Below, piece by piece: positions 1-14,738 of a stretch of DNA of 64,000 nucleotides (position 1 is the stretch's first letter; each line of letters begins with the position of its first letter). The stretch is from positions 1 to 64,000 of the forward strand of contig CAVOXA010000022.1 of the NCBI GenBank assembly GCA_963700285.1. The letters run 5' to 3'. The position numbers and the translations under genes were made by a program. Origin of the DNA: an uncultured Chloroflexia bacterium (GTDB taxonomy: Bacteria; Chloroflexota; Anaerolineae; JAAYZQ01). The notes beneath the pieces were generated by a model. That model was not told where the DNA came from. It saw only the letters and a list, made by a program, of their open reading frames with translations, and searched no databases.

Positions 1-814
1 AGCCGGACCGAACGGCTGATCCTCCGCTGCAGGTCGCGGCTACCCCGTACCGGAAGCCCTGACGGGGGCCCACGAGTTGGTCCGGCAGGTGACACGCTCC
101 AGCAACCCCGGCCAGGTCGTCAAGGCCTTCCTGGAGAACCTTGCGGCCATCCAGGCATGGCATCAGCGGGCACAGGCGCTCCACAAGTTCGTGGTCCTCG
201 ACAAGCAGTTGCCGATCTTTGAACGGGCCAGGCGGCTGGCAGCCGCGGTCAATCGCGCCCGTGAGGTGCCTGAAGCCGCCGAGCAGTTGGGCGCCCAGGC
301 ATTCGAATGGCGGGAAGGTCTGGTGGACATGATCTCCACAGGAAAGGTCGCCGAAAAGTGGGACCAGTTCCAGGCGATTCATACCCCGCTCAAGGCGCAG
401 TTCCAGCGGGCTTACGAGGCCCTGCACACTCAAAGGGCAGAAGCACTCGAAGGGGCACGGGCCAAGCTGGAGGGCGCTGAGGTCTCAGCGGTGGTGCTCA
501 GACCCTACGGCTGTCCTGGCCTCGGCTGGGCGACAGATGGCTTGGGCTGTGGCGAGTGCGGCGCAGCGTTGCACGAGTTGCCAACGCAGATCGTAGCGAT
601 TCCCTCACTTGCCAGGCAGCAACTTGTTCGTGAGCAGGAGGCACGGCTGAAGACCAGGCAAGATGATGGACGGACTGCCGTGAATGTACCGCTGTCAACG
701 GTGCTTGGTGGGCGCGAGATTTCCGATGCTACCGACCGTGATAGAGCGCTGGGAGACCTCAAACAAGTCATCGACGAGGCCTTGCAGGATGCGGATTTCG
801 TCACACTGGTATAG
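1..814 (+). CDS. brxC: BREX P-loop ATPase BrxC/PglY, C-terminal part (5' truncated by window edge)
   Basis: Helical C-terminus ending ALGDLKQVIDEALQDADFVTLV, similar to BrxC tails; lies upstream of pglX-pglZ-brxL. No ATPase motifs in view, so the call rests largely on context. Confidence 0.55.
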
Positions 815-886
815 TCATGCGAATCTAGACGACCAGGGCCTAAATCTGTATTGCTGATTGTCTACAAGCGATAGGTGAGTTTGCAT

Positions 887-3800
887 ATGTCAGAAGCTCG
901 GTCAACAGGCACAGTTGATTGGTTCAATAGGGATGGTCGCTACGGTGTCATCAAAGATCCTGAGGGCACAGAGTATTTTGTCTATTTCACGAACGTTCGT
1001 GGGCAGCGGGACCTATCACCCGGAATGCATGTCTCCTTCCTATCACGGTGGCGTACCAAGGGGATGCGGGGTCGGGAGGCGTATGATGTAGAGATTGACG
1101 GGATTGGGCCGCGCCCATCGGCCACTACACGAGGTACCTCACCCGCTCGCCGAGGGGATTCCACTCGTAGCACCGGGCCTACCGGGGGACTGGAAAACGC
1201 TGGTACTCAGAGAGTAGCTCAGGAAGCGTTGCGCCTGAAGATAGCGCGCCGGCAAGGGATAGTGCCTCCTCCTACCGAACAGTATCCGCCTGGCACTCGT
1301 GTGTATCACGAGCGATGGGGCTTCGGCAGGGTAGTACTCGCCGCCACAGAGACAGTCTCTGTCCGTTTAGAAGACGATCCACATAGAGTCGAGGATGTCC
1401 TGCGCTCTGAAGTTCAACCGGCCCCAGATGATGAGATCCAAAGGAATGTGCGTGACTACAGACTCGTCCCGCCCGGCCCCCAGTGTTCTTGGCGAACGAG
1501 TAGCCTCGCGGTCTTCGGCACTATGTCGTCAGCTGCGCCGCGATGTCCAGGGAGTCCTAGCAAAAGAACTTCTGGATACGGCATTTGTCCACCGCTCGGA
1601 AGAACCACTATCACCGGAAACCCCTTCTGCACCTCTCAGGATTGACACTCCGATTGCCGACTTGTTCAAGAACGTTGAGGGCATTTCGGACTTTTATTCC
1701 CATCAAATCGAGACTAGAGAACACCTCTTGGCTGGGCGGCACATCATGATCACCACGCCGACAGCCAGTGGCAAGACAGAAAGCTATAACCCCACCGTGT
1801 TGGAATCGCTGCTTTAGGGACCCTCAGGCAACCGCGCTCTATGTCTTTCCTCTCGTTGCCTTGGGTGAGGATCAGGTAGCGCGCTTGAGGCGGCTTAACA
1901 ACGCATTACCACCAGACCAGCAACTTCGGATTGGCATATACAACTCCAGCGTGGAGCCCAATGAAAAAAAGGCTACACTGCGAGCTGAAAACCGCATCTT
2001 GGTGACGACACCCGATTCCCTCCACTATCTCTCCTGCCAAAGCCCTATCCAAACTGGAGAAACTTCTACCGAAACTTGCGTTACGTAGTCCTTGACGAAT
2101 TTCATGTCTACAGGGGGGTGCTGGGTGCCAACATGGCCAACATTGTGCGGCGCTTGTTGGTTCGCTGCCGCCGGGAAGGCAATCCGAGCTTTCCTCAGGT
2201 GGTTGTCTCGTCAGCCACGGTCCGCAGCCCGCAGGTGCTTGCTCATCAACTCACGGGGCTGCCACTGAGGAATTCGCCGTTGTTGACGAGCCGGGGCGCC
2301 ACAGCCTGGTCGCCACTACCTGGTGACGCGTGAGGATATACATGACCTCGTGGACCTGTGTGCAGATCTACTGGACCTCGAAACCATCGACGCCCGGACA
2401 GGGAATTCGCGTCCGGCGCGCACAATCGTCTTCCTACGTTCTATCAATGAAGTCAAAGGTGTAACCGAGCGGCTACGAAAGCAGATCCGCAGTCATCGAA
2501 GATGGGACTTGGTGGCCAACGTGGCCGATTTCTACGCGGAGAGAGAGCTGACAGAAGGATATCTTTGTCCGCTTACAGCAGGGACAGATACGCACAGTAT
2601 TCGCCACCACGGCATTGATGGCGGGCATCGATATCGGCAGCCTTGACGTTGCGATAGTGAAGAACTTTCCGGGCCTAGTCATGGATGCGCGACAGATGTT
2701 CGGACAGACTGGCCGGGCTGGCGAGGGGGCTGCTATCTTTATCGCGAGGCGAACGGATCCGTTCGACCAGTTCTACTTCGAACGTCCCGATCTGCTGTTC
2801 AGTGGCGAGACAGAAGAGGTCATCGCCAATCCAGAAAACCCGTACTTACTGGCTGCGCATCTAATGTGTGCCACGCAGACCAGCAGTGATGCGCCGTATA
2901 ACAACCGAGAAGGTCCGCTGCCGGGTTCGTGGGCCGACATCTTTTTGGAGGAATGAGTACCGCGACGTGCTGCGTTTGCTGGAGCAGGATGGACAACTGG
3001 TGGTGCGGAGGGGTAGCTACGGCACTGCCGTTTGGACACCCTCATGATGAGCCGCCCTTGAACAACCTGCGCTCAATGGAGACAGATGAGTTTGCACTCG
3101 TAACCCAGGATGCCAGCGGACAGCGGGAACTGAGAAGAGAAGAAACGGGCGACGAATGCTTATCGGGACGCACATCCTGATGCCATCGTCTGGTGTGATG
3201 GAAAAAGCTACAAGGTCACACGATTTGATCAAGAGCATCGGCAAATCCATTGCCAATTGTATGAGGACTCGAACTTACGCACGCGGGGCATTCAGATCCT
3301 GACCATTGAGACAAAGGGGGACGTTTCCAGGAAGCGCCTACGCGAGGACGGCCTACAGGCAGGAAGTGGAGAGGTGGCAATTACTACCAACGTGGAGAAA
3401 TACTCGCTGTACAGAACAACCACGCTGATGCGCTGCCGAAATCGAAGACTGTCGTCACGAGACGCCGAACCTCGATGCTATGAGATGCCCGAGTTGTGGC
3501 GGGCCTGTACGGGCCAGACAGGTAGAGAAGATTGTAGAAACGATCCCAATCGTAAGCGAATTCCCTCTTTCCACGACGCTGGAGACTCGGGCAGGTTGGC
3601 TGGAGTTCCCGGAGAGCCTGCGTGCCTACTTTGAGCGCAAGTTCTGGCCGCGTTGGCTGAGTGACACACCGGGCATGCCTGAGGCAGAGCCGGCGATCAT
3701 GCCAACGTTTGTGGATGGCATCCACAGCCTACTTCATGGCCTTCTGAAGGCCTTTCCGAGCGAGTCCGGTGTGATCGTGACGAGATCAACGGCCTCTATC

Positions 3801-4152
3801 AGCTTGGCAGCAACGGTATGTCCGCCCAGGTCTACGTATATGACAACTTCCGGGAGGGCTGGGGCTAGCGGATCGAGTTCTTCTTCGAGCCCTGGGACTT
3901 TTTGGAAGACGGGCTTGGAATCATAGAGCGCTGCAACTGCGATGAAGATGAAGGTTGCCCTGTCTGTCTGAGCCGCTTCGGTTGCCATGTCTTTAACGCC
4001 CACCTCAGCAAGTTTGCCGGCCGCTTTCTACTACGTACGGTGCTCGGTCTTCCGGAAGACGAAGTCGTTCAAATCTAGAGGATTATGTGCACAAGGTCGT
4101 AGACCCGAGCCTGGTCGTGACAGGTGAGCAACTTGACAGGCCATCACAGTAG
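887..4152 (+). CDS. Cold-shock domain + Tudor-like domain + DEAH-box SF2 helicase with DUF1998 Zn domain (MrfA/DrmB/Hrq1-like); frameshifted
   Basis: CSD: GTVDWFNRDGRYGVI...YFVYFTNV. Helicase motifs across split ORFs: FYSHQ, TPTASGKT, FPLVALGEDQ, TTPDSLH, DEFH, SAT, AGIDIGSLD, QMFGQTGRAG. C-terminal CNCDEDEGCPVC...C; stop TAG at 4150-4152. Confidence 0.8.
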
Positions 4153-4167
4153 GTAAGGCAAGGACCC

Positions 4168-7100
4168 ATGAACCAACGAGTCCAAACGCGCCATCAAAGC
4201 CCTCGTCCTCGAGCTGCGCCACACCCTGGAGGACGACATCGCCATCCAGCTCCGGCGCTACGGCTACGCCGGCGGCCGCTGGATCGAGCCCGAAAAGCTG
4301 CCCCACATCTGGGACGACGACGCGGCGATGGCCCAGCGGCAGCGGATGGATACCGCCCTGGCTGGGACTGCGCGCATGGGCGTAGGCGACCCGGGGGAGG
4401 CCACTGCCAAACAGCGCGAGGAGGCGGTGGGCTGGTTCGTGCGCGAGATCGCCTACACCCACCTCAACCGGCTGGTGGCCCTCAAGGCGCTGGAGGTGCG
4501 CGGCCTGATCCCCGAGGTGATTACGACGCGAGATGCCTACGGCGGGCGCAGCCGAGCGCACTATGACTTGCGCAACAGCCACCCCGACTGTGCCGCGGTC
4601 CCGACGAGGGCCTGGGCGAGGCCATCCGCCAGGTTAGCCGTCTGGTCTACCGTGACTTTCGGCTGCTGTTTGACGTGGGGGACCCTGCGGACGGCCCGGG
4701 CGGCCATCCGGCGAGGGTCGCGCGGCACCGGTCAACACGCTCATCTGGCCCAGCCACACCGCGTTGCGGAGTTGCGTTGCTGCCGTCAATGGCCTGGACG
4801 AGCGTGCCGGCAACACAGGCCCCAGCCTGTGGCTGGAGGACGAGATCATCGGCTGGCTCTACCAGTTCTACAACGCCGAGCAAAAAGAGGCCATCCGCAA
4901 GCGGGGCAAGCCGCGCCGCCCGGCTGAGGTGGCGGTCATCAACCAGTTCTTCACCCCGCGCTGGGTGGTCAAGTTCCTGGTGGACAACACCCTGGGCCGC
5001 CTGTGGCTGGAGATGCACCCCGATTCGGAGCGGGTGCGGGAAAGTGTGACTATCTGGTGCCGGAGCCGCTGGGGACGGAGGAGGGGGAGACGGGGGAGGG
5101 GAAGAGGGAAGGGGAGAGCGGGGGCGGGGGATTCGCGCTGGATCCGGACTCGCCGGTGAACAACCCCCTGGCCCCCGCGCGGCGGGCGGCGAAGCGTCCT
5201 CAGGACATCCGCCTCATCGACCCCGCCTGCGGGACGATGCACTTTGGGCATTACGCCTTCGAGGTCTACCAGGAGATCTACACGAGAGGCACGGGAGCGG
5301 GGTTGGGTCGATGGCGCCGACGCCCTTCCGGACGAGCGAGGTCCCGGCTGCCATCCTGCGCCACAACCTGTACGGCGTGGACATCGACCTGCGGGCCGTG
5401 CAACTGGCCGGGCTGTCGCTCTACATCAAGGGCCGGAGCGCCGAGGCGGCGTTGGGTATTGACGAGACCCGCATCAACCAGGTCAACCTGGTGGTGGCCG
5501 ACGCGGTGCTGCCCCAGGATGGCGCCCGGCGGCAGTTCCTGGCCCAGTACAGGGATGACAAGGTGGTCCAGGACGCGGTGCGCCAGGTACTGGATGAGAT
5601 GGCCAACGTGGCCGAGGTGGGCAGCCTGCTGCGCGTCGAGGAGCGCCTGCGGGACATCCTGGGCAAGGCGGGGCACGCGGCGGCCCAGGATTGGGACATG
5701 CGAGCGACAGAGGGAGCTACCGGGCCTGGAGCCAGAGGTCCGCCAGCGCTCCCTGGCCGAGGCGCCGGCGCCGTGCCGGAGCAATGGGGTGCTCACTATA
5801 CGGTGGCCCGCCTGCTGGAGGACCTGCGGGCCTTTGCCGCCCGCGCCCTGCAGCCAGCACGACCTCAACGCCCAGCTCTTTGCCCAGGAAGCCAGCAAGA
5901 GCGTGCACCTGCTGGATGTGTTCCTGAACGAGTACGACGTCGTGGTGATGAATCCGCCGTACGGGATACAACCGACACTGCTCGGAACGGATACGTCGAG
6001 AGCTACCCCGAGGCAAGCGTGACCTCTACGCTGCATCTTGTCGACAGAGCTCTACGATCTTCTTTCACACGGGATATGTCGGTGCCCTCACATGCCGGAC
6101 CTTCTGACTCTGGCTACGTTCGAGGCTTTTAGACAGTATCTGATATCGAAGATTCGTTCCTATTCTGTTTTTGATTTGGGCTTTGGCATGTTGGATGATG
6201 CCACAGTTGAGACCTGCATTGTCTGTCGAGTCCAGAAGTGGCAGGGATCATCCATGAGTCCGCACTCACAGACGTCTTTTTCGCTGCAGGAAAGGGCACG
6301 AATGGTTAGATGTGTGTGTCAGCTCTCAAGAGACCGCAAGAGACGATTTCTATTGCCAAGCTACAAAGTATCCTCCGGCTTCCAGTATTGCCTACCGGCT
6401 CCTATAGCTTTGCTAGATCGTTACATTGAGACTGAATATCGCATTACGGACTTCGTTCATGCAGAAATGGGCTTGGGCACTCGGTAGGGATGCCCAGTTT
6501 GTCAAGTATCATTGGGAGGTCGCAAGTCCAGAGACCTCGAAGGCAGGGATTGGCGTCGCTTCTGCCAAAGGCGGGGATTTCTCCCGGTACTACTCAGATA
6601 TTGATGTAGTTGTTGACTGGCAGCAATGACGGACGACCTATGCAGGAGTTCCCTGGATCTCGCCGCAGGAGCGAGGACTACTACCTCCAAGCAGGGATCA
6701 CGTGACCATGGCTAACAGTGAAAGGATTCAACCCTCGGGTGCTGCCATACTCAGAGCATGTTTGCTAACATCAGTCCCCTTGCACCGTTTCCAAGTGATC
6801 GAATCTGTACAAGAACTTGTGCAGGAGCGTTTTGAGTGTCTTGCAGAACTCCGATTATTCGCTTTCCTTGGTTATTGAACTCGAAAACAGTCGTGCAGTT
6901 CTGGATCTAGATAACGCCAAGTCGTAACGTATCAGTCGGTCAAGTACCGCATTCCGACTTACTGAGGAAGTGATGGGCTGTCCTAGCTCTACTGCAGATA
7001 GCGTTTACTGTAAAGCCACCTGGGACACCGGCAACGAGATCTGCACCCGCTTCGATGCCCCCTGGCTGGTCGCAGGCCCACCGCCGCCAACTCCTGGCCT

Positions 7101-7984
7101 GCCTTCCCCGACCTTCATCCCGCCCAACCTCCAGCCACCAATCTGCAGTCTCTGCTCGATCTACGTCCGCGCCGTCGAGGACGCCGCTGACGCTCGCCTA
7201 CAGCAGCTCCAGGCCGAGATCGATGAGACGGTCTACGACCTCTATGAGATCAGCGCCGAGGACCGGGCTCTTATCGAGCGCGAGCTGGGCGAGCGGCCGC
7301 CCGGAGCTGGTCTGGCCCCAGATGGAGCGCAAGAGCGACGCCGAAAAGCGCCGCGAGCACGTCCGGCGGCTGGTCTCCTGGTGCCTGCTGGAGACGCTCA
7401 AGGCCGACCCCGACGGCATCCTGACCCTGGACGAGGCGCGTGGCCGGCGTGCGCGATCGCCTGGAGGCCGAGTTCGGCGAGGAGGCGGCCTTCCGCATGG
7501 AGGCCGACATCAAGGGCGTGCTGGGCCGGGACCTGGCCGATTGGCTCGACGGGCCTTTTGTCCAATGGCACACCAAGCTCTACAAAAAGACGCCCATCAT
7601 CTGGCACCTGGCCAGCGATGACGGCGCCCGGACGCTGAACCTGTTTCGTCCACTACCACAAGCTGGACGGCGACACGCTGCGCAAGGTGCAGACGCTGTA
7701 CCTCTGGCCGGCCAGGCGCCGCCAGGAGAGCCAACGGTCCACCGCCCAGGCGCGGAACGATCCTGCCGGCGTCGAGGCCGCCGAGCTGGCGCTGGAGGCG
7801 CTGGAGGAATTTGAGAAGCGGCTGCTGTCGGTCATCCAGGCCCAGGTGCCGTACCGAGCCGCCCGACTGGGCCGAGGGGCCGTTCCGGGGTGGCGTGTAT
7901 GACCCAGTTCTGGATGACGGGGTGAAGGTCAACCTGTTGCCCTTGCAGGAGGCGGGGTTGCTGCGCTACAGGAAGGTGGTGTGA
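4168..7984 (+). CDS. pglX: BREX adenine methyltransferase PglX/BrxX (frameshifted)
   Basis: EIAYTHLNRLVALKALEVRG, IIGWLYQFYN, QFFTPRWVVKFLVDNTLG, DPACGTMHF (motif I), NPPY (motif IV), WHTKLYKKTPIIWHL, C-terminal YDPVLDDGVKVN. Confidence 0.9.
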
Positions 7985-7988
7985 GCTG

Positions 7989-9045
7989 ATGTTCGAGCCC
8001 AATTTTCGCCGGACCGACCTCCTCATCGAGTTGGTCGCCCGCATCGCGGTCGGCGCGCGACCGTATCCTGCGGGCGCCCATCGTGCCCCGCTGGGAGGCC
8101 GAGCTGCGCCGCGAGGCCCTCGCCCGCAGCGCCCACCACTCCACCAGCATCGAGGGCAATCCGCTTTCCCTGGAGCAGGTCACGGACCTTTTGGCTGGCC
8201 GGCAGGTGCTGGCCCACCCCCGCGACAGGCGGGAGGTCCTCAACTATGCCGCTGTCCTGCGCTACATCGACCGCAGGACTCCGGCTCAGGGTGGCGCGGT
8301 TACCGAAGAGACCATCCTGCAGCTCCACGCCCTCCTCGTCGCAGAGATCCTGCCGCCGGCGGAGAGCGGCCGCCACCGGCAGGTACCCGTGGTCGTGGCG
8401 GTGCCAGCCACGGGTGAGGTGATCTACCGCCCACCCGATTGGCAGGATGTGCCCGAGCTGATGGCCGGCCTGGTCGCCTGGCTCAACAGCCCTCAGGCCG
8501 CGGCCCTCATGCCCGTGCTCGAGGCCGGGATCGCCCATTACGAATTGGTCCGCATCCACCCCTTCACCGACGGCAATGGGCGCACGGCCCGCGCCCTGGC
8601 CACGCTCATCCTGGCCCGGAGGGGCTTTGACACCAAGCGCTTCTTTGCCCTGGACGAGTACTACAACCAAGACCGGCCGAGCTACTATGACGCCTTGCGC
8701 TCCGTCGATGCACACTCCCGTGACCTGACCGAATGGCTGGAGTATTTCGTCCAGGGCATCGCCGTGGAGATGGTGCGCGTCGAGGACCGGGTGCAGCAGT
8801 TGACGAGGCTACACCGTGCTACACAGGAGGGGGAGCAGATCTCCCTCAACGCGCGCCAGCTCCAGCTTCTCGATTATCTGCGCCAGAGCGGTGGCAGCAT
8901 CAGCAATGGCGAGTACCAGGAGATCTTTATGGTCTCCAAGCGGACGGCCAGCAACGATCTGGGCGAGCTGGTGACCCATGGCCTGCTGGCCGTCGAGGGC
9001 GCCGGGCGTGCAACACGATATCGCCTGACAGAGTCCCATGCCTGA
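7989..9045 (+). CDS. Fic family protein with C-terminal winged HTH (frameshift near 8060)
   Basis: STSIEGN, intact Fic motif HPFTDGNGRTAR, C-terminal ISNGEYQEIFMVSKRTASNDLGELV wHTH. Confidence 0.9.
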
Positions 9046-9079: not shown

Positions 9080-9204
9080 CCGGGCTGGCAGCGTACGCCA
9101 TCCCAGGCCGCTGCCCAGGTACATAGGCCAGAACTCGGCCCGGGGCTGTGGTGCGCGGTGCAGCCCTCCGCGGCCAATCGCTGTTCTGGCGAGGAGCAAT
9201 CTCG

Positions 9205-11826
9205 ATGCTCATCCAGGCCCTAAAGGACCACTTCACGGGCTATTTTGCCCAGGCGGCAACCAAGGACACCGTTCTTTGGTTCGACCGGGAGAAAGAGTAC
9301 GCCGGATTGCTCGACTCGCTGGCAGGCCTGCCCCTGTGGCGCTTCGAGGGCAGCTTGCTCCAACTGCGCTACCGGCTGGTCCAGCGCGCTACCGGAGAGC
9401 GGGCTGTCGTCTACCTGCCGATGACAGAGGAAGAGGCGGACTTGCTCCGTCCCTTCTTTGCCACCAGCCTGTGCTTCAAGGACCGGCTCTACCGTTTCCT
9501 GCGCCACCAGGGGCTGGCCTTCCCCGATGATCCCAGGGCAGCCCACCTCATGCGAGAGTTGCTGCCTCAGTTGGCCATCCGGTCTGTCGGCAAAGGACGC
9601 CGGTTCTGGGAATACAACCTGGAGAATATCGAGCGGGCCATCAACACGCTCCTGGGCGAGTTTGACGGCACACTGCTGCGCTTCCTGGACCAGCCTGCCG
9701 ACGAGCTGGCGGATCTGCGCGCCCAGCAGTTCGATGGCCTCTTCTACGCCGAGCTGGCGGGCGCCTATGGCCTGGAAGCAACGCCGGATGATGATCCAGG
9801 GCAGGTTGCACGCGACCTTACCGCACAGCTCGTCCTGGCCCGGGCCTACACTCACGCTTCACTCAGTGCAGGCACTCACGCTTCACTCAGTGCAGGCACT
9901 CACGCTTCACTCAGTGCAGGCACTCACGCTTCACTCAGTGCAGGCACTCACGCTTCACTCAGTGCGGGCACTCACGCTTCACTCAGTGCAGGCACTTATA
10001 CCGCGGCCAGCGGGGGCGCAGAAACGGCGCAAGCAGAGGGTTTTCCCTATCCAGATCGCTTGCCCCAGCCCCATCAATTCGACCGCTGCCTGCGCTTCCT
10101 GGATCGCTGGCAGAACGACGCCCGCTATGCGGCCACCTTCGTCCGGCTGGCGACCGATGTAGGGCAGGCCTACAGCCTGGGCCCCTGGCTGGAAGCCTTG
10201 CCCATGGAGCAAGCGCTCAGCCTCGGTCCAACCCTGCCTGATGCCGAGACGGTACTCTGGGAGCGCGTACTGGCCACCTTGACCAAACGGGAGAGCGAGG
10301 CTGAATGGCGGGAGTGGCTCGCGGCGCAACGAACGGCCCTCCAGGAACGTGCGGAGGGGTTTTGGGTTCGCCAGGGCCGGGATCCCGGCTGGAACGTCCT
10401 CGTCCAGGCGGCCGCCCTGCTCACCCTGGCCCACGAGATGCGGGCCGAGCTGCCCAAGGTTGCTCAGCCCAGCGCCATGCTGCAGCGCTATGCCGGCCAA
10501 TGGTGGCGCATCGACGCCGCCTATCGCACCTTCCGCCAGGCCCTGGCGGACGCCCCGGGTGGGCTTGACCCCGTCCGGGACCGCTGCGCCCGGGCCTACG
10601 GTGAGGCCCTGCGGGCTATAAACGAACGCTTCAGTACCCTCCTTGATGCAGAGGGGCGCTGGCCTCCGGAGGGCGCACCGGCCGCTCAGGATCGTTTCTG
10701 GGCCGAGGAAGTGGCGGGCTTGAGCAAAGGTCAGAGGCAGGCTGTCCTCTTTGTCGATGCCATGCGCTACGAATTGGCGCAGACCCTGCTGGCCCAATTG
10801 GAGGCCGATCGGGCGGGGGACAGCCGCACACTGAAGCCGAGGCTGGGCGTCCTCCCCACCGTCACGCAACTGGGCATGGCCGCCCTGCTGCCAGATGGGC
10901 ACCAGCGTCGGGTGACCCACGATGGCGAGTGGCATGTGCACATCCGCGACAGCGGGGATCTGGCCATCAAGGCCGCTCGCATCGAGTGGCTGGTCGCCTG
11001 CCTGCCTCAGTGCACGGTCGCGGCCTACAACCTGAACGATCTGCTCAGCACCCCCACCGACCGCATCGAACAAGCCGACTATACCTTTGTCTTTGATACC
11101 ACGCTGGATGCCGTGGGTGAGAACGCCAGCGAGCTGGCCTGGGACGCCTTCGAGCCGCTGGTTCGCTCGGTGAAGCAGGGTGTGCACAAGCTGCTGGAAT
11201 TGGGGATCGAGGTGATCCACATCGTGGCCGACCACGGCTTCTTGTTGTTGCACGAGGTGGCCGAGCACGACAAGGTGCCGGCGGGCAAGGCACCAGCGCT
11301 GGCGCGCAAGTCTCGCTACCTCGTAGGCAAGCACCTGGGCAGCACGGATCAGCTCGATTTTCCGCTGCCCTGCAGTGAGGATCTTGAGATCTGGTTTCCA
11401 TGCGGCATCGGTTGCTTCCGCACCCCAGGGCGCTACAATTATGTGCATGGCGGCCTGTCCCTCCAGGAGGTGGTCGTGCCCCAGTTGACGGTCCGGCAGC
11501 AGCGGTTGGGCCGGCCGGTGGGCGTGCGCGTCGAACTGCCAGCCGCGATCCGCCAGGGGCAGATACGGCTCACCCTGGAACCCGTGGTCGAGAGCGTCGT
11601 CGACCAGCCGCGACGCGTCAGCCTGGCGCTGGAGAAGGGTGGACAGCCGGTCGTGCCACCCTCTGAAGCGACGGTGCTGCCCAGCGGGCCGGCCACCGTG
11701 AATGTGTGGTTGCCCCAGGGCTGCGGCCTGGAGATCGGTGACCGGGTTGAGTGGGTGCTGCGCGACCTGCTCACCGGCGAGGTGCTGGAACGCCAGGAGA
11801 CGCTCAGCCAGGTAGACCTTTGGTGA
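9205..11826 (+). CDS. pglZ: BREX PglZ alkaline-phosphatase-fold protein
   Basis: GAGGAG RBS; VLWFDREKEY N-terminus; FVDAMRYELA, LPTVTQLGMAALLP, IVADHGF, YVHGGLSLQEVVVP. Confidence 0.92.
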   Translation: MLIQALKDHFTGYFAQAATKDTVLWFDREKEYAGLLDSLAGLPLWRFEGSLLQLRYRLVQRATGERAVVYLPMTEEEADLLRPFFATSLCFKDRLYRFLRHQGLAFPDDPRAAHLMRELLPQLAIRSVGKGRRFWEYNLENIERAINTLLGEFDGTLLRFLDQPADELADLRAQQFDGLFYAELAGAYGLEATPDDDPGQVARDLTAQLVLARAYTHASLSAGTHASLSAGTHASLSAGTHASLSAGTHASLSAGTHASLSAGTYTAASGGAETAQAEGFPYPDRLPQPHQFDRCLRFLDRWQNDARYAATFVRLATDVGQAYSLGPWLEALPMEQALSLGPTLPDAETVLWERVLATLTKRESEAEWREWLAAQRTALQERAEGFWVRQGRDPGWNVLVQAAALLTLAHEMRAELPKVAQPSAMLQRYAGQWWRIDAAYRTFRQALADAPGGLDPVRDRCARAYGEALRAINERFSTLLDAEGRWPPEGAPAAQDRFWAEEVAGLSKGQRQAVLFVDAMRYELAQTLLAQLEADRAGDSRTLKPRLGVLPTVTQLGMAALLPDGHQRRVTHDGEWHVHIRDSGDLAIKAARIEWLVACLPQCTVAAYNLNDLLSTPTDRIEQADYTFVFDTTLDAVGENASELAWDAFEPLVRSVKQGVHKLLELGIEVIHIVADHGFLLLHEVAEHDKVPAGKAPALARKSRYLVGKHLGSTDQLDFPLPCSEDLEIWFPCGIGCFRTPGRYNYVHGGLSLQEVVVPQLTVRQQRLGRPVGVRVELPAAIRQGQIRLTLEPVVESVVDQPRRVSLALEKGGQPVVPPSEATVLPSGPATVNVWLPQGCGLEIGDRVEWVLRDLLTGEVLERQETLSQVDLW
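9849..9996 (+). repeat. In-frame 24-bp tandem repeat x6 (CACTCACGCTTCACTCAGTGCAGG; THASLSAG) inside pglZ
   Basis: Six near-identical copies (one A>G) plus a 4-nt partial copy. Confidence 0.95.
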
Positions 11827-11902: not shown

Positions 11903-11925
11903 CACATATGAGAGGGGGGCAGGCA

Positions 11926-12210
11926 ATGGCCCGAGTTGGCGTGCGTGAACTCAAGAATCAGGCGACAGAGATCATCCGCAATGTGCGGGAAAACCAGGCG
12001 GAGTATCTGGTCACCTACCGCGGGAGGCCGGTTGCCGTCCTTTTGCCCGTAGATGAGGCGTGGCTGGCGACGGAGGCGAGACGAGCTGCCGAGACCGTGA
12101 CGCCGAGCGATGACGTGTGGGCAGAACTGGAGGCTCTTCGGGAGGAGATCGACCAGAGCTGGCAGTCGGAAAAGACAGCTGTCGAGCTGGTCTCCGAGCA
12201 GAGGCGATAG
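11926..12210 (+). CDS. Phd/YefM family antitoxin
   Basis: MARVGVRELKNQATEIIRNV...YLVTYRGRPVAVLLP. Confidence 0.9.
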   Translation: MARVGVRELKNQATEIIRNVRENQAEYLVTYRGRPVAVLLPVDEAWLATEARRAAETVTPSDDVWAELEALREEIDQSWQSEKTAVELVSEQRR

Positions 12211-12220
12211 GCGGGCCACC

Positions 12221-12652
12221 ATGTATGTCATCGATGCCAGTGTCCACGTGGCCGATGCCCGGCCCCAGGAGCCCTATCATGCGGAGGCTCGAGCGCTGAT
12301 GGCACGGGTAGCAGCACGAAACCTGCCTGTCTTGCTACCTGAGATCGTCCTTGCCGAGGTTGCAGCGGGTATCTCCCGCGGCACGGGACAGATAGCCTTG
12401 GCTCAGCGGCTGGTCGGGGTTCTGCGGAGAGTGCCTCAGTTCCGATTTGTTCCCGTGGAGCATACCCTCGGGGACCTGGCAGCCGAGATTGCGGCCAGTC
12501 ACCAGATTCGTGGCTGCGATGCCCTGTACGTAGCTCTGGCCCAACAATGGGATGCAATACTCATTACACTGGATCGCCAGCAGCGGGAGCGAGTCCCCAC
12601 GTACATTATCGCTCGGAGCCCCGCTGAAGAGCTGGCTCAAATGGACCGGTAG
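12221..12652 (+). CDS. vapC: VapC/PIN-domain toxin
   Basis: YVIDASV, LAEVAA, IRGCDALYVALA, LITLD PIN acidic residues. Confidence 0.9.
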   Translation: MYVIDASVHVADARPQEPYHAEARALMARVAARNLPVLLPEIVLAEVAAGISRGTGQIALAQRLVGVLRRVPQFRFVPVEHTLGDLAAEIAASHQIRGCDALYVALAQQWDAILITLDRQQRERVPTYIIARSPAEELAQMDR

Positions 12653-12691
12653 GCTTCACAAAGGCAGAAGGTGGATGCGGAGGAACCACCA

Positions 12692-14738
12692 ATGAACCTT
12701 GACTCTTTGGACCGCAAGTTGGCAGACGCCTTTCCCGGCCGCGTGGTGCGCAAGGACCTGGTGCGCCAGACCAAGACCGGCTTCAACGTGCCCGTCTACG
12801 TGCTGGAATACCTGCTGGGCCAGTACTGCGCCTCGACCGACCCCGAGGTGGTGCGCCGGGGCCTGGAGTACGTGCGCGACACCCTCAGCCGCAACTACGT
12901 CCGCGCCGACGAGAGCGAAAAGATCAAGGCCATCACCCGCCAGAAGGGCCGGCATCGCATCATCGACAAGGTCAAGGTCCGCCTGCGATACCAAGGCCAA
13001 CCGTTTCTGGGCCGAGCTGATCAACATGGGCGTCCGCGACGCCGTCATCGCCGATGAAGTGGTGCACCAGTACGACAAGCTGCTGATGGGCGGCATCTGG
13101 GCCATCGTCGACCTGGAGTACGATCCCGAGTTCCAGATCGGCGGGGCGACGCGCCCTTCATCGTCGATGCGCCTCAAGCCGATCCAGCAGCCGACCACCG
13201 ACCTGGACGAGTACGTGCGCGGCCGGGCCGCCTTCACCACGGGACGAGTGGCTGGACGTCCTGCTGCGCTCGCATCGGCCTGGAGCCGACCCATCCCGAT
13301 TTCACCCTCCGCAAGAAGCTGCTCATCCTGGTGCGCCTGATGCCGATGGTCGAGAGCAACTACAACCTGATCGAGCTGGGTCCGCGCGACACCGGCAAGA
13401 GCTACGTCTACCGCGAGATCTCGCCCTACGCCATCCTCATCTCCGGCGGGCAGACCACCGTGGCCCAGCTCTTCATGCACCTGGGCACCGGGCGTATCGG
13501 CCTGGTGGGTCTGTGGGACGTGGTCGCCTTTGACGAGGTGGCCGGCGTGCGCTTCAAGGACCCCGGCGGCGTGCAGATCCTCAAGGACTATATGGAGTCG
13601 GGCAGCTTTTCCCGGGGCAAGGAGGAGGTGCCGGCCGAGGCATCCATCGTCTTTAACGGCAACATCGACGGCGACATCAAGACGCTCGTCAAGACCTCGC
13701 ACCTGCTCCAGCCTCTGTCCGAGCAGTTGCAGGACCTGGCCCTCATCGACCGCCTCCACTTCTACCTGCCCGGCTGGGAGATGGACAAGATGCGGCCCGA
13801 TTACTTCACCTACCACTATGGCTTCGTGGTGGACTATATCACCGAGGTGTGGCGCGGGCAGCGCAAGACCAGCTACGCCGATGCCATCGACCGGGACTTC
13901 AGCCTGGGCAGCCACCTCAACCAGCGCGATGTGCGGGCCGTGCGCAAGACCGTCTCCGGCTTGATCAAGCTGCTGCACCCTGACGGACAGTTCACCCGCG
14001 AGGAACTCGAGACCTACCTGGAACTGGCGCTGGAGGGCCGGCGGCGGGTCAAGGAGCAGTTGCGGCGCATGGGCGGGCTGGAGTTCTGGGCCGTGAACTT
14101 CTCCTACCTGGACCTGGAGACCCGCCAGGAGACCTTTGTCGCCGTGCCCGAGCAGAGCGGCGGGCGGTCTGATCACGCCGGGCCAGCTCGACCCAGGCGT
14201 GACCTTCACGGTGGGCACCGACCAGGCGGATGGCCGGCTGGCCATCTTTCGCGTCGAGGTGCAGGCCCTCAAGGGCAACGGCCGGCTGCGTGTCACCGGC
14301 GCACCATCGCGGGCCATACGCGACGCAATCCAGACCGCCCATACCTATCTGTCCTCCCACGCTGCCAACCTCGGCCTGGGCAAGAACCCCGCCGAGTACG
14401 ACCTGCACGTCCAGTTGGTCAACCTGATGCAGTCCAAGGAAGGCAGCGAGACTGGCGTAGCCTTTTTCGTCGCGATGGTCGGCGCACTGCTCGACAAACC
14501 GGTGATGGAGTCGCTGGTGGTGCTGGGCGAGATGAGCCTGCGCGGTGGGTTGCTCAAGGTGGGCAGCCTCACCGAACGGCTGCAGCTGGCCATGGACAAC
14601 GGAGCTAAGCGGGTGCTGCTGCCGGCTGAGAACAAGCGGGATTTTGCTGACATCCCCACCGAGGTACTGGACAAGCTGCAGATCATCTTCTATTCCGATC
14701 CGATCAACGCTGCATTCCGGGCGATGGGGGTGGATTAA
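12692..14738 (+). CDS. brxL: BREX BrxL (AAA+ with Lon-like C-terminal domain); frameshifted
   Basis: FPGRVVRKDL, NVPVYVLEYLLGQYC, Walker A GPRDTGKS, VAFDEVAG, LKDYMESGSFSRG, C-terminal FYSDPINAAFRAMG. Confidence 0.93.

Follow-up and report, generated by a model that had tools for sequence, protein, structure and literature searches.

A helicase gene within a BREX locus

The window analysed here is a stretch of 64,000 nucleotides (positions 1 to 64,000 of contig CAVOXA010000022.1, assembly GCA_963700285.1) from an uncultured Chloroflexia bacterium, and the element in question is a helicase gene at 887-4152, which lies between the 3' end of brxC and pglX of a type 1 BREX locus and on the same strand as the BREX operon. 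The limits of the gene were set by a frameshift-aware alignment to the homolog P0178 and by tblastn with the homolog P0001. The encoded domains run in the order cold-shock domain, basic helix, UvrD/PcrA-like Tudor barrel and MrfA-type (YprA, DUF1998) core with a four-cysteine ribbon:

887..4152, forward strand: helicase gene, about 1,085 codons
905..1090, forward strand: cold-shock domain in the window's own open reading frame (Pfam PF00313, 32.1 bits, cut-off 27)
1091..1210, forward strand: low-complexity linker, varying in length and sequence in the family alignment, with a predicted local distance difference test score (pLDDT) below 50 at homolog residues 74-90
1211..1260, forward strand: basic helix, conserved in the family with the consensus AAxEALRLKRERxxG; residues 91-119 are helical in the homolog model
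1280..1420, forward strand: SH3/Tudor-like barrel, a relative of the UvrD/PcrA C-terminal domain (model, Foldseek, profile, hhalign)
1690..2760, forward strand: RecA1 and RecA2 motor domains with superfamily 2 (SF2) helicase motifs (Walker A TPTASGKT at 1755, motif II DEFH at 2094, motif III at 2208, motif VI at 2693 with R-to-Q at 2705)
2761..3729 (approximate limits), forward strand: winged helix, rope, OB fold and connector sheet as in MrfA (model and profile alignment)
3434..3500, forward strand: extra four-cysteine ribbon inside the connector sheet, CPSCG at 3486
3730..4000, forward strand: MrfA zinc-binding domain (DUF1998/MZB), cysteine cluster at 3932-3967
approximately 1454, 1815, 2032, 2265, 2288, 2548, 2954, 3021, 3133, 3446, 3759, 3848, 3874 and 4070: frameshifts in the helicase gene

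The reading pieces of 887-4152 are spread across all three frames. Aligned to P0178 (1117 residues), the closest intact homolog among the 31 compared, the gene has 14 one-base frameshifts and no in-frame stop, and it is collinear with residues 1-1101 at 694 identities in 1067 aligned residues (65%). The original prediction, made from the DNA letters, had taken the locus to encode a single fused protein, and at the junction of the Tudor and helicase parts we found no stop and restart, only the frameshift near 1454, which joins both. Two separate genes are ruled out by the collinear alignment and the lack of an in-frame stop. When the first 199 residues were used as a query against longer proteins, the single match was P0001 (1077 residues; 40% identity over 90% of the query), which has DEAD, Helicase_C and MZB/DUF1998 domains in Pfam and is collinear with the window gene from start to end.

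Residues 400-1077 of P0001 in turn matched 176 proteins, of which the best 120 were examined. Among the matches listed, 63 score at least 309 bits (38-100% identity), followed by a gap to 219 bits and at most 32% identity, and the family so bounded comprises about 60 intact relatives of about 1,050 residues each. The family alignment holds 53 near-full-length members (51 of the 63, with P0007 and P0010 added and 12 shorter or partial proteins omitted).

The frameshifts are most likely local assembly errors, because housekeeping genes nearby are split too, while rpoB and pcrA on contig C1 of the same assembly are unbroken. The split genes are pglX, brxL, moeA, an amidohydrolase gene and an enolase-superfamily gene; the window's contig is not an outlier in a genome-wide profile of long-open-reading-frame coverage. 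That the window copy is a true pseudogene, which would be compatible with any reading of the family, we consider very unlikely: the density of frameshifts (14 within 3.3 kb), the intact genes on contig C1 and an altered motif VI speak for decay, but there are no in-frame stops, the neighbouring genes are likewise split, the pglX copies of the window and of contig C4 differ by 36 gap bases in 1,726, and, of the family residues, the gene keeps 93 of the 94 that are invariant and 205 of the 216 that are near-invariant. Its sole lost invariant residue is the first arginine of motif VI, present in all 53 relatives; positions 2705-2710 encode Q-T where the family has R-A.

The G+C content of the gene is 0.561, compared with 0.633-0.669 for the brxC end, pglX, fic, pglZ and brxL and 0.610 for the genome, so the gene is AT-richer than the BREX core, as had been predicted; 4% of 2,146 equal-sized genome windows have a value of 0.565 or less. 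No sigma-70-like promoter or terminator was found at 600-1000 of the window.

Fold and modules of the helicase

The AlphaFold2 model of P0001 (pLDDT 85) has Bacillus subtilis MrfA as its best match (Foldseek E 2e-52) and superposes on the MrfA chain 6znp_A with a Z score of 34.3 and a root-mean-square deviation of 5.7 over 714 aligned residues at 30% identity. The family profile likewise scores 433 bits against MrfA and 121 against the next solved helicase, and spans MrfA residues 18-606 without a large insertion, none falling between the RecA domains. Arg491, which anchors the rope in MrfA (PMC7797055), aligns with the invariant Arg724 of the family, kept in the window. DruE and DrmA are not among the best 50 structure matches, which excludes nothing. 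The full SF2 DEAH core of the original prediction stands in part: motifs I, II, III and VI are present, but motif II reads DEFH and motif VI is altered.

Both cysteine clusters that had been predicted, an extra CxxC ribbon and that of DUF1998, are found. Pfam MZB matches P0001 (E 2e-16) and P0178, its cysteines are kept in the window, and in the P0001 model only about 55 residues, forming two helices, follow it. The ribbon lies at the tip of a hairpin between strands 819-845 and 868-882 of the P0001 model; its cysteines, C845, C850, C862 and C865, are invariant in all 53 family members, and the host MrfA copies gave no match to it. Among YprA proteins, additional zinc modules at the OB-connector region are a mark of the defensive members (Bell et al., 10.1101/2025.09.15.676423). 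Neither Pfam searches of intact homologs nor the model revealed a nuclease domain in the helicase.

The N-terminal cold-shock domain, likewise anticipated, retains in the window the tryptophan, the RNP1 tyrosine and the RNP2 phenylalanine, the second RNP1 aromatic being replaced by valine. At the positions that we take to be canonical for RNP1 and RNP2, the family columns hold W in 39 of 53 members, Y or F in 36, F in 39 and H in 34, and the second RNP1 aromatic is V or I in 42. Cold-shock-like domains are recurrent in defence proteins (PMC11090510). The basic helix that follows the linker had been missed by the original prediction.

The motif YPPGTRVYHERWGFGRVV..VSVRL at 1283-1369 had been likened to the Tudor domain of PcrA/UvrD, and the domain that contains it is modelled as a five-strand SH3/Tudor-like barrel (pLDDT 91.7). 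Its two top Foldseek matches, 7egt_B (UvrD) and 5dma (PcrA), bear out the likeness at weak E values (3.8e-3 and 1.4e-2). A VIA comparison with 5dma_A gave a Z score of 7.0 and a root-mean-square deviation of 1.8 over 47 aligned residues, a level at which many KOW/SH3 barrels tie, up to Z 8.5. The best solved match of the Tudor profile is Thermus UvrD 7egt_B (E 5e-9), and hhalign against six host PcrA domains gave 96%, over just 31 columns. With PF21196 the domain scores 13.2-14.3 bits (model positions 2-19), below the gathering cut-off of 23.9; the genome's own PcrA scores 53.9. An ESM Atlas search with P0178 residues 1-260 gave no usable match.

In PcrA, H681, W684, K712 and L714 are needed for binding to RNA polymerase (PMC5397179). 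The first two positions are H and W in the window; in the family the H681 position is H in 39 of 53 members and the W684 position Y/F or H in 38. In the second half, where the register was set manually, the K712 position is V or I in 32 and the L714 position L, V, F or I in 46, so that the K712 lysine is apparently not conserved, its column being mostly hydrophobic; D and R are conserved in its stead. A similar motif occurs in the host RpoB near residue 498, and the UvrD C-terminal domain also binds UvrB and other partners (PMC8318588). Coupling of the Tudor barrel to RNA polymerase is, on the strength of alignment and model, possible only, because the fold and the H and W match PcrA and K712 apparently does not.

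The PcrA/UvrD Tudor module is reused elsewhere, since a 257-residue non-helicase frame (L048, G382:C360) ends in such a domain above the Pfam cut-off.

Across the 53 aligned members a cold-shock domain is found in 48, a Tudor domain intact by pattern in 48 (51 by a laxer profile from the same alignment) and both together in 44; the Tudor is degenerate or lost by pattern in five, and one member has two. A 100-row tree of helicase cores, built by a quick search with midpoint rooting and with no DruE, ArmC or DrmA rows, groups 34 members by themselves across a branch of support 100, the eight host MrfA rows lying on the other side. Members with a Tudor alone diverge early in this tree, a hint that the architecture may have been assembled stepwise, the zinc ribbon and Tudor coming first and the cold-shock domain later.

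Outlying relatives of the family carry other N-terminal modules. Among the DUF1998 helicases P0032, P0014, P0134 and P0136 there are unusual fusions: an N-terminal DUF4145 (sister to the family), a C-terminal DnaJ and an N-terminal protein kinase.

The BREX slot and the neighbourhoods of relatives

The features of the BREX locus around the helicase gene are as follows:

1..814, forward strand: 3' end of brxC, the contig beginning within the gene (NF033441, E 2.4e-8; 87% nucleotide identity to the brxC of contig C4 over 1-652)
815..4167, no strand: variable cargo slot, brxC stop to pglX start
4168..7950, forward strand: pglX (frameshifted)
8083..9045, forward strand: Fic-HTH gene, SoFic-like (E 1e-56), cargo between pglX and pglZ
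9148..11826, forward strand: pglZ
11908..12652, forward strand: Phd/YefM and PIN toxin-antitoxin pair, cargo between pglZ and brxL
12671..14738, forward strand: brxL (frameshifted)

The call of brxC by NF033441 is weak (E 2.4e-8 to 3.5e-5), and the predicted position of the helicase between brxC and pglX is supported by this match together with the identity to the C4 brxC, and by pglX on its 3' side. The type 1 BREX set is complete across two contigs of the assembly, with brxA, brxB and a full brxC on C4 and pglX, pglZ and brxL in the window. Only C4 has brxA, brxB and the start of brxC, and only the window's contig, C22, has pglZ and brxL. The brxC and pglX start of C4 are 87% and 93% identical to the window's pieces and, since pglX runs off the end of C4 and brxC off the start of C22, the two contigs may represent strain alleles of one locus.

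In C4 the slot between brxC and pglX is occupied by AbiEi and AbiEii (G000:C4:1-9000, L057). Homology of C4 to the window wanes over the last 160 bases of brxC and returns at the pglX start codon. A close pglX was found in G022 alone among 22 relatives, and there the slot (L085:887-9353, G022:C3; 8.5 kb) holds a third cargo, consisting of NERD-kinase, kinase-FGE, kinase, PP2C-like phosphatase and STK_OB-like kinase-TPR genes and a 222-residue unknown gene. PADLOC labels genes of this cargo PP2C and STK_OB, which we take to be TerY-P-like; no vWA gene was seen in it. With three different cargoes in three related BREX copies, the stretch between brxC and pglX is a hotspot of which the helicase is one occupant. 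The Fic-HTH gene and the Phd/PIN pair are both absent from the G022 copy.

A fixed place for the helicase in type 1 BREX was considered and rejected, since it is absent from the C4 and G022 loci and its homologs occupy other BREX slots. We conclude that the helicase is not a BREX subunit, because in two related BREX copies its place is taken by unrelated cargo. Independent systems embedded in BREX loci are already known (PMC11341690; PMC12839542).

Two further features of the locus were observed. The target-recognition part of pglX (window 6000-7000) has a G+C content of 0.50 compared with 0.63 for pglX as a whole, which would be expected if this specificity region had been exchanged, and pglZ contains at 9801-9996 an in-frame tandem array of about six units, each of 8 residues (THASLSAG).

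Relatives of the helicase are scarce. Among the matches listed, the named records of the family are Chloroflexota. Carriers number one in 401 genomes of the class, none in 401 of the phylum, and one in 401 and one in 28 in two order-level samples; these counts are lower bounds, because the searches of 401 genomes considered two candidates in each genome, and two samples that included the window's genome missed its broken copy. The 22 other genomes of the window's family yielded no further carrier. A search of genome contigs with P0001 alone gave no match, and with the family alignment at least three loci. Five loci were found on viral contigs, all distant (25-41% identity) and none a family member, and plasmids yielded no family member, the best match being 30% identical. 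A separate canonical MrfA-like gene is present in five of the six carrier genomes.

A related clade of about 930 residues with a Tudor-like N-terminus and the zinc ribbon (L068-L071; P0030, P0016, P0035) was observed on large cyanobacterial plasmids among mixed neighbours; at least 80% of P0030 is covered in 31 of 40 matching plasmid records.

Neighbourhoods were compared at 11 homolog loci with flanking genes, a defence neighbour being a PADLOC match at E ≤1e-10 within two genes. Left out of the count were L011 (context type as L009, one short flank), L012 and L013 (no flanking gene), L015-L017 (fragments) and L018 and L019 (not family). Defence neighbours were found at 7 of the 11 homolog loci and at none of 10 housekeeping MrfA loci, where three generic PADLOC matches lie farther off in two loci; because these controls come from one family and are kin, not independent, and open reading frame picking may have missed genes, we treat the comparison as an indication and attach no statistic to it. 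The seven comprise three BREX loci (L003, after a truncated brxB; L006, between pglX and pglZ; L010, before higBA-pglZ), two loci of type IIG restriction-modification (L007, L031) and two other defence-like loci (L005, L014). In 6 of 9 homolog loci the helicase gene is lower in G+C content than the flanking DNA. The expectation that homologs would lie near defence genes is thus upheld, and a role as a second defence layer, one of the two originally suggested, fits these defence-enriched neighbourhoods. The other, that of a dedicated BREX accessory, fails: BREX genes surround the helicase in 4 of 12 loci, the window included, the slots differ, and the slot's cargo elsewhere is unrelated.

The neighbour of the helicase is an adenine methyltransferase gene at four loci (the window, L006, L007 and L031), and BREX genes adjoin it in L003 and L010. 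The helicase could on this evidence be a plug-in for methyltransferase systems, BREX or type IIG restriction-modification, that acts in the manner of DrmAB, loading onto single-stranded DNA of unmethylated invaders and feeding a nuclease of the host system (PglZ, PLD or NERD). The lack of a nuclease in the helicase, the strand shared with the BREX operon and the gene content of L031 and L007, which resembles ARMADA II and DISARM, would suit such a role. We nevertheless judge it unlikely, given that neither partner nor position is fixed, that four of the 11 loci have none of these genes, that unrelated systems fill the same slot, and that the BREX copies of G022 and C4 do without the helicase.

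L007 contains a IIG methyltransferase, the helicase and PLD. L031:2622-14816 (G382) comprises an integrase, an SNF2 helicase, a Tudor-less family member, NERD-UvrD and a type IIG methyltransferase, and resembles ARMADA type II in gene content, but with a repair-type YprA core. The helicase of L003 is followed by a gene for 1080 residues (L003:6223-9465) like the repeat part of NB-ARC/STAND proteins, and L006:7763-9784 encodes a BrxL whose Lon domain is replaced by a Schlafen AlbA_2 domain.

A second alternative, doubtful but somewhat better placed than the plug-in role, is that the gene encodes an MrfA paralog, mobile and accessory, that works in repair and rides in islands without defending, its borrowed UvrD-type Tudor reaching RNA polymerase or UvrB and its cold-shock domain holding nascent RNA while crosslinks or R-loops are cleared. 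The fit of the whole fold to MrfA and the retained rope arginine point this way, as do a Tudor nearest to UvrD/PcrA domains that have been solved bound to UvrB and RNA polymerase, the four loci in ordinary DNA, the mixed surroundings of the related plasmid clade, and the carrier G888, whose sole MrfA-like gene is the family member. It is harder to reconcile with hosts that mostly retain their own MrfA, with none or one carrier per sample of about 400 genomes (as lower bounds), with the alternation with AbiE in one slot, and with the degenerate or lost Tudor of 5 of 53 members. Nor was a MrfB-type exonuclease matched by Pfam among the neighbours scanned in the window and at 11 loci, several of which have short flanks, or found fused to the helicase.

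Known systems and a proposed role

MrfA (YprA) of B. subtilis and SftH of Mycobacterium smegmatis share with the window helicase a single chain of RecA1, RecA2, winged helix, OB fold, connector and MZB, and characterised relatives of this type are monomeric 3'-to-5' single-stranded DNA translocases (PMC3424565; PMC7797055). The RNA sensing of the original prediction is therefore possible only, these relatives being helicases of single-stranded DNA. The window helicase differs in some 200 extra N-terminal residues (cold-shock domain, basic helix and Tudor) and in the four-cysteine ribbon, and its family forms a separate, sporadic clade in defence-island contexts with no mrfB seen. ARMADA, TALON, BRIGADE and Druantia also belong to the YprA family and have an extra zinc module in the canopy; the window helicase lacks their BrxA-like insert after RecA1, zinc beta-barrel in RecA2, C-terminal nuclease or RNase H-fold domain and fixed operon. 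TALON is mostly from Chloroflexota, and its cold-shock domain is on a separate TPR protein (10.1101/2025.09.15.676423). Membership of TALON, ARMADA or Druantia was rejected since the clade hallmarks are absent, there being no large RecA insertion and only two helices after MZB.

Like the window helicase, DISARM DrmA/DrmB is a YprA motor that lacks a nuclease and has a nucleic-acid-binding domain at its N-terminus, which in DISARM class 1 is EVE-like (10.1101/2025.09.15.676423). In the window family, however, one gene, a single chain in the intact homologs, replaces the split DrmA/DrmB, cold-shock and Tudor modules replace EVE and the trigger loop, and no conserved five-gene array is apparent; DISARM-like methyltransferase, SNF2 and PLD genes occur as partial sets in L007 and L031 only. 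PcrA and UvrD have the same Tudor barrel, homologous to the window domain in its N-terminal half; the window Tudor, in contrast, is N-terminal to an SF2 motor and below the Pfam cut-off. PARIS and the auxiliary nucleases of type 1 BREX loci are, like the window helicase, cargo within the operon, the slot of the helicase being that between brxC and pglX.

At about even confidence, we take the helicase to be exchangeable cargo of the BREX hotspot and an anti-phage layer of its own, made of a single gene that joins an MrfA/YprA-type motor to cold-shock, Tudor and four-cysteine modules. An exchangeable defence gene is likely, and not a core machine, because the slot holds other defence-type genes in related copies, and a repair-branch helicase has likely been re-recruited as such cargo to act on single-stranded DNA. 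This reading is supported by the slot swapping, the defence-enriched neighbours, the patchy distribution, the separate clade, the lower G+C content, the second canonical MrfA-like gene in five of six carriers and the extra zinc module shared with defensive YprA proteins.

Several observations weigh against it. The core is nearest to repair-branch MrfA and lacks the hallmarks of the defence clades, and no nuclease or toxin domain offers an obvious effector. Four of the 11 loci (L004, L008, L009, L081) are not defence islands, the helicase lying in L004 between purM and a glycosyltransferase gene and in L081 near toxin-antitoxin genes only; the PADLOC helicase matches at L005 and L014 can be generic, and the control loci are from one family. 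G888, 94% complete, has no other MrfA-like gene at E≤1e-30, and the motif VI change, if real, would impair the window copy.

As exchangeable defence cargo the helicase could work as follows. The cold-shock domain and basic helix would capture single-stranded nucleic acid and raise affinity, and the Tudor barrel would dock on a protein partner at the target. By homology with MrfA and SftH, the core would load on single-stranded DNA and move 3' to 5' with ATP. The motor might stall the invader directly, by unwinding or stripping the intermediates of its replication, recombination or transcription. The helicase itself would not cut, and any cutting would fall to unrelated nucleases of the cell. 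Recombination through the conserved genes on either side would transfer the cassette, as suggested by the fading of C4 homology in the brxC 3' end and its resumption at the pglX start codon.

A more specific proposal is that YprA proteins were recruited into immunity a second, independent time, from the repair branch, as a single-gene, nuclease-free helicase that rides transcribing RNA polymerase by its UvrD Tudor and cold-shock domain and dismantles phage transcription bubbles or R-loops; this we regard as quite unlikely.

The original prediction did not recognise the architecture, and full-text searches showed no published paper on a cold-shock- or Tudor-bearing DUF1998 helicase, though supplements of the YprA census and the BREX survey may list members unlabelled; DUF1998, YprA and MrfA go unmentioned in the main text of the 2026 BREX survey (PMC12839542). 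The architecture is real and well bounded, apparently undescribed and of modest spread, and the circumstantial evidence that it serves defence is good. The YprA census recognises two branches of the family, one of repair and one of defence, and, in its text, gives an N-terminal DNA-binding domain only to DISARM class 1 and Dpd helicases (10.1101/2025.09.15.676423). A repair-type core with N-terminal cold-shock and Tudor domains and defence-island habits would blur this split. How a nuclease-free helicase arrests phage is a standing question for DISARM and BREX, of which a single gene with deletable modules would allow a direct test, and the slot between brxC and pglX could readily be mined for more defence genes of these uncultured bacteria.

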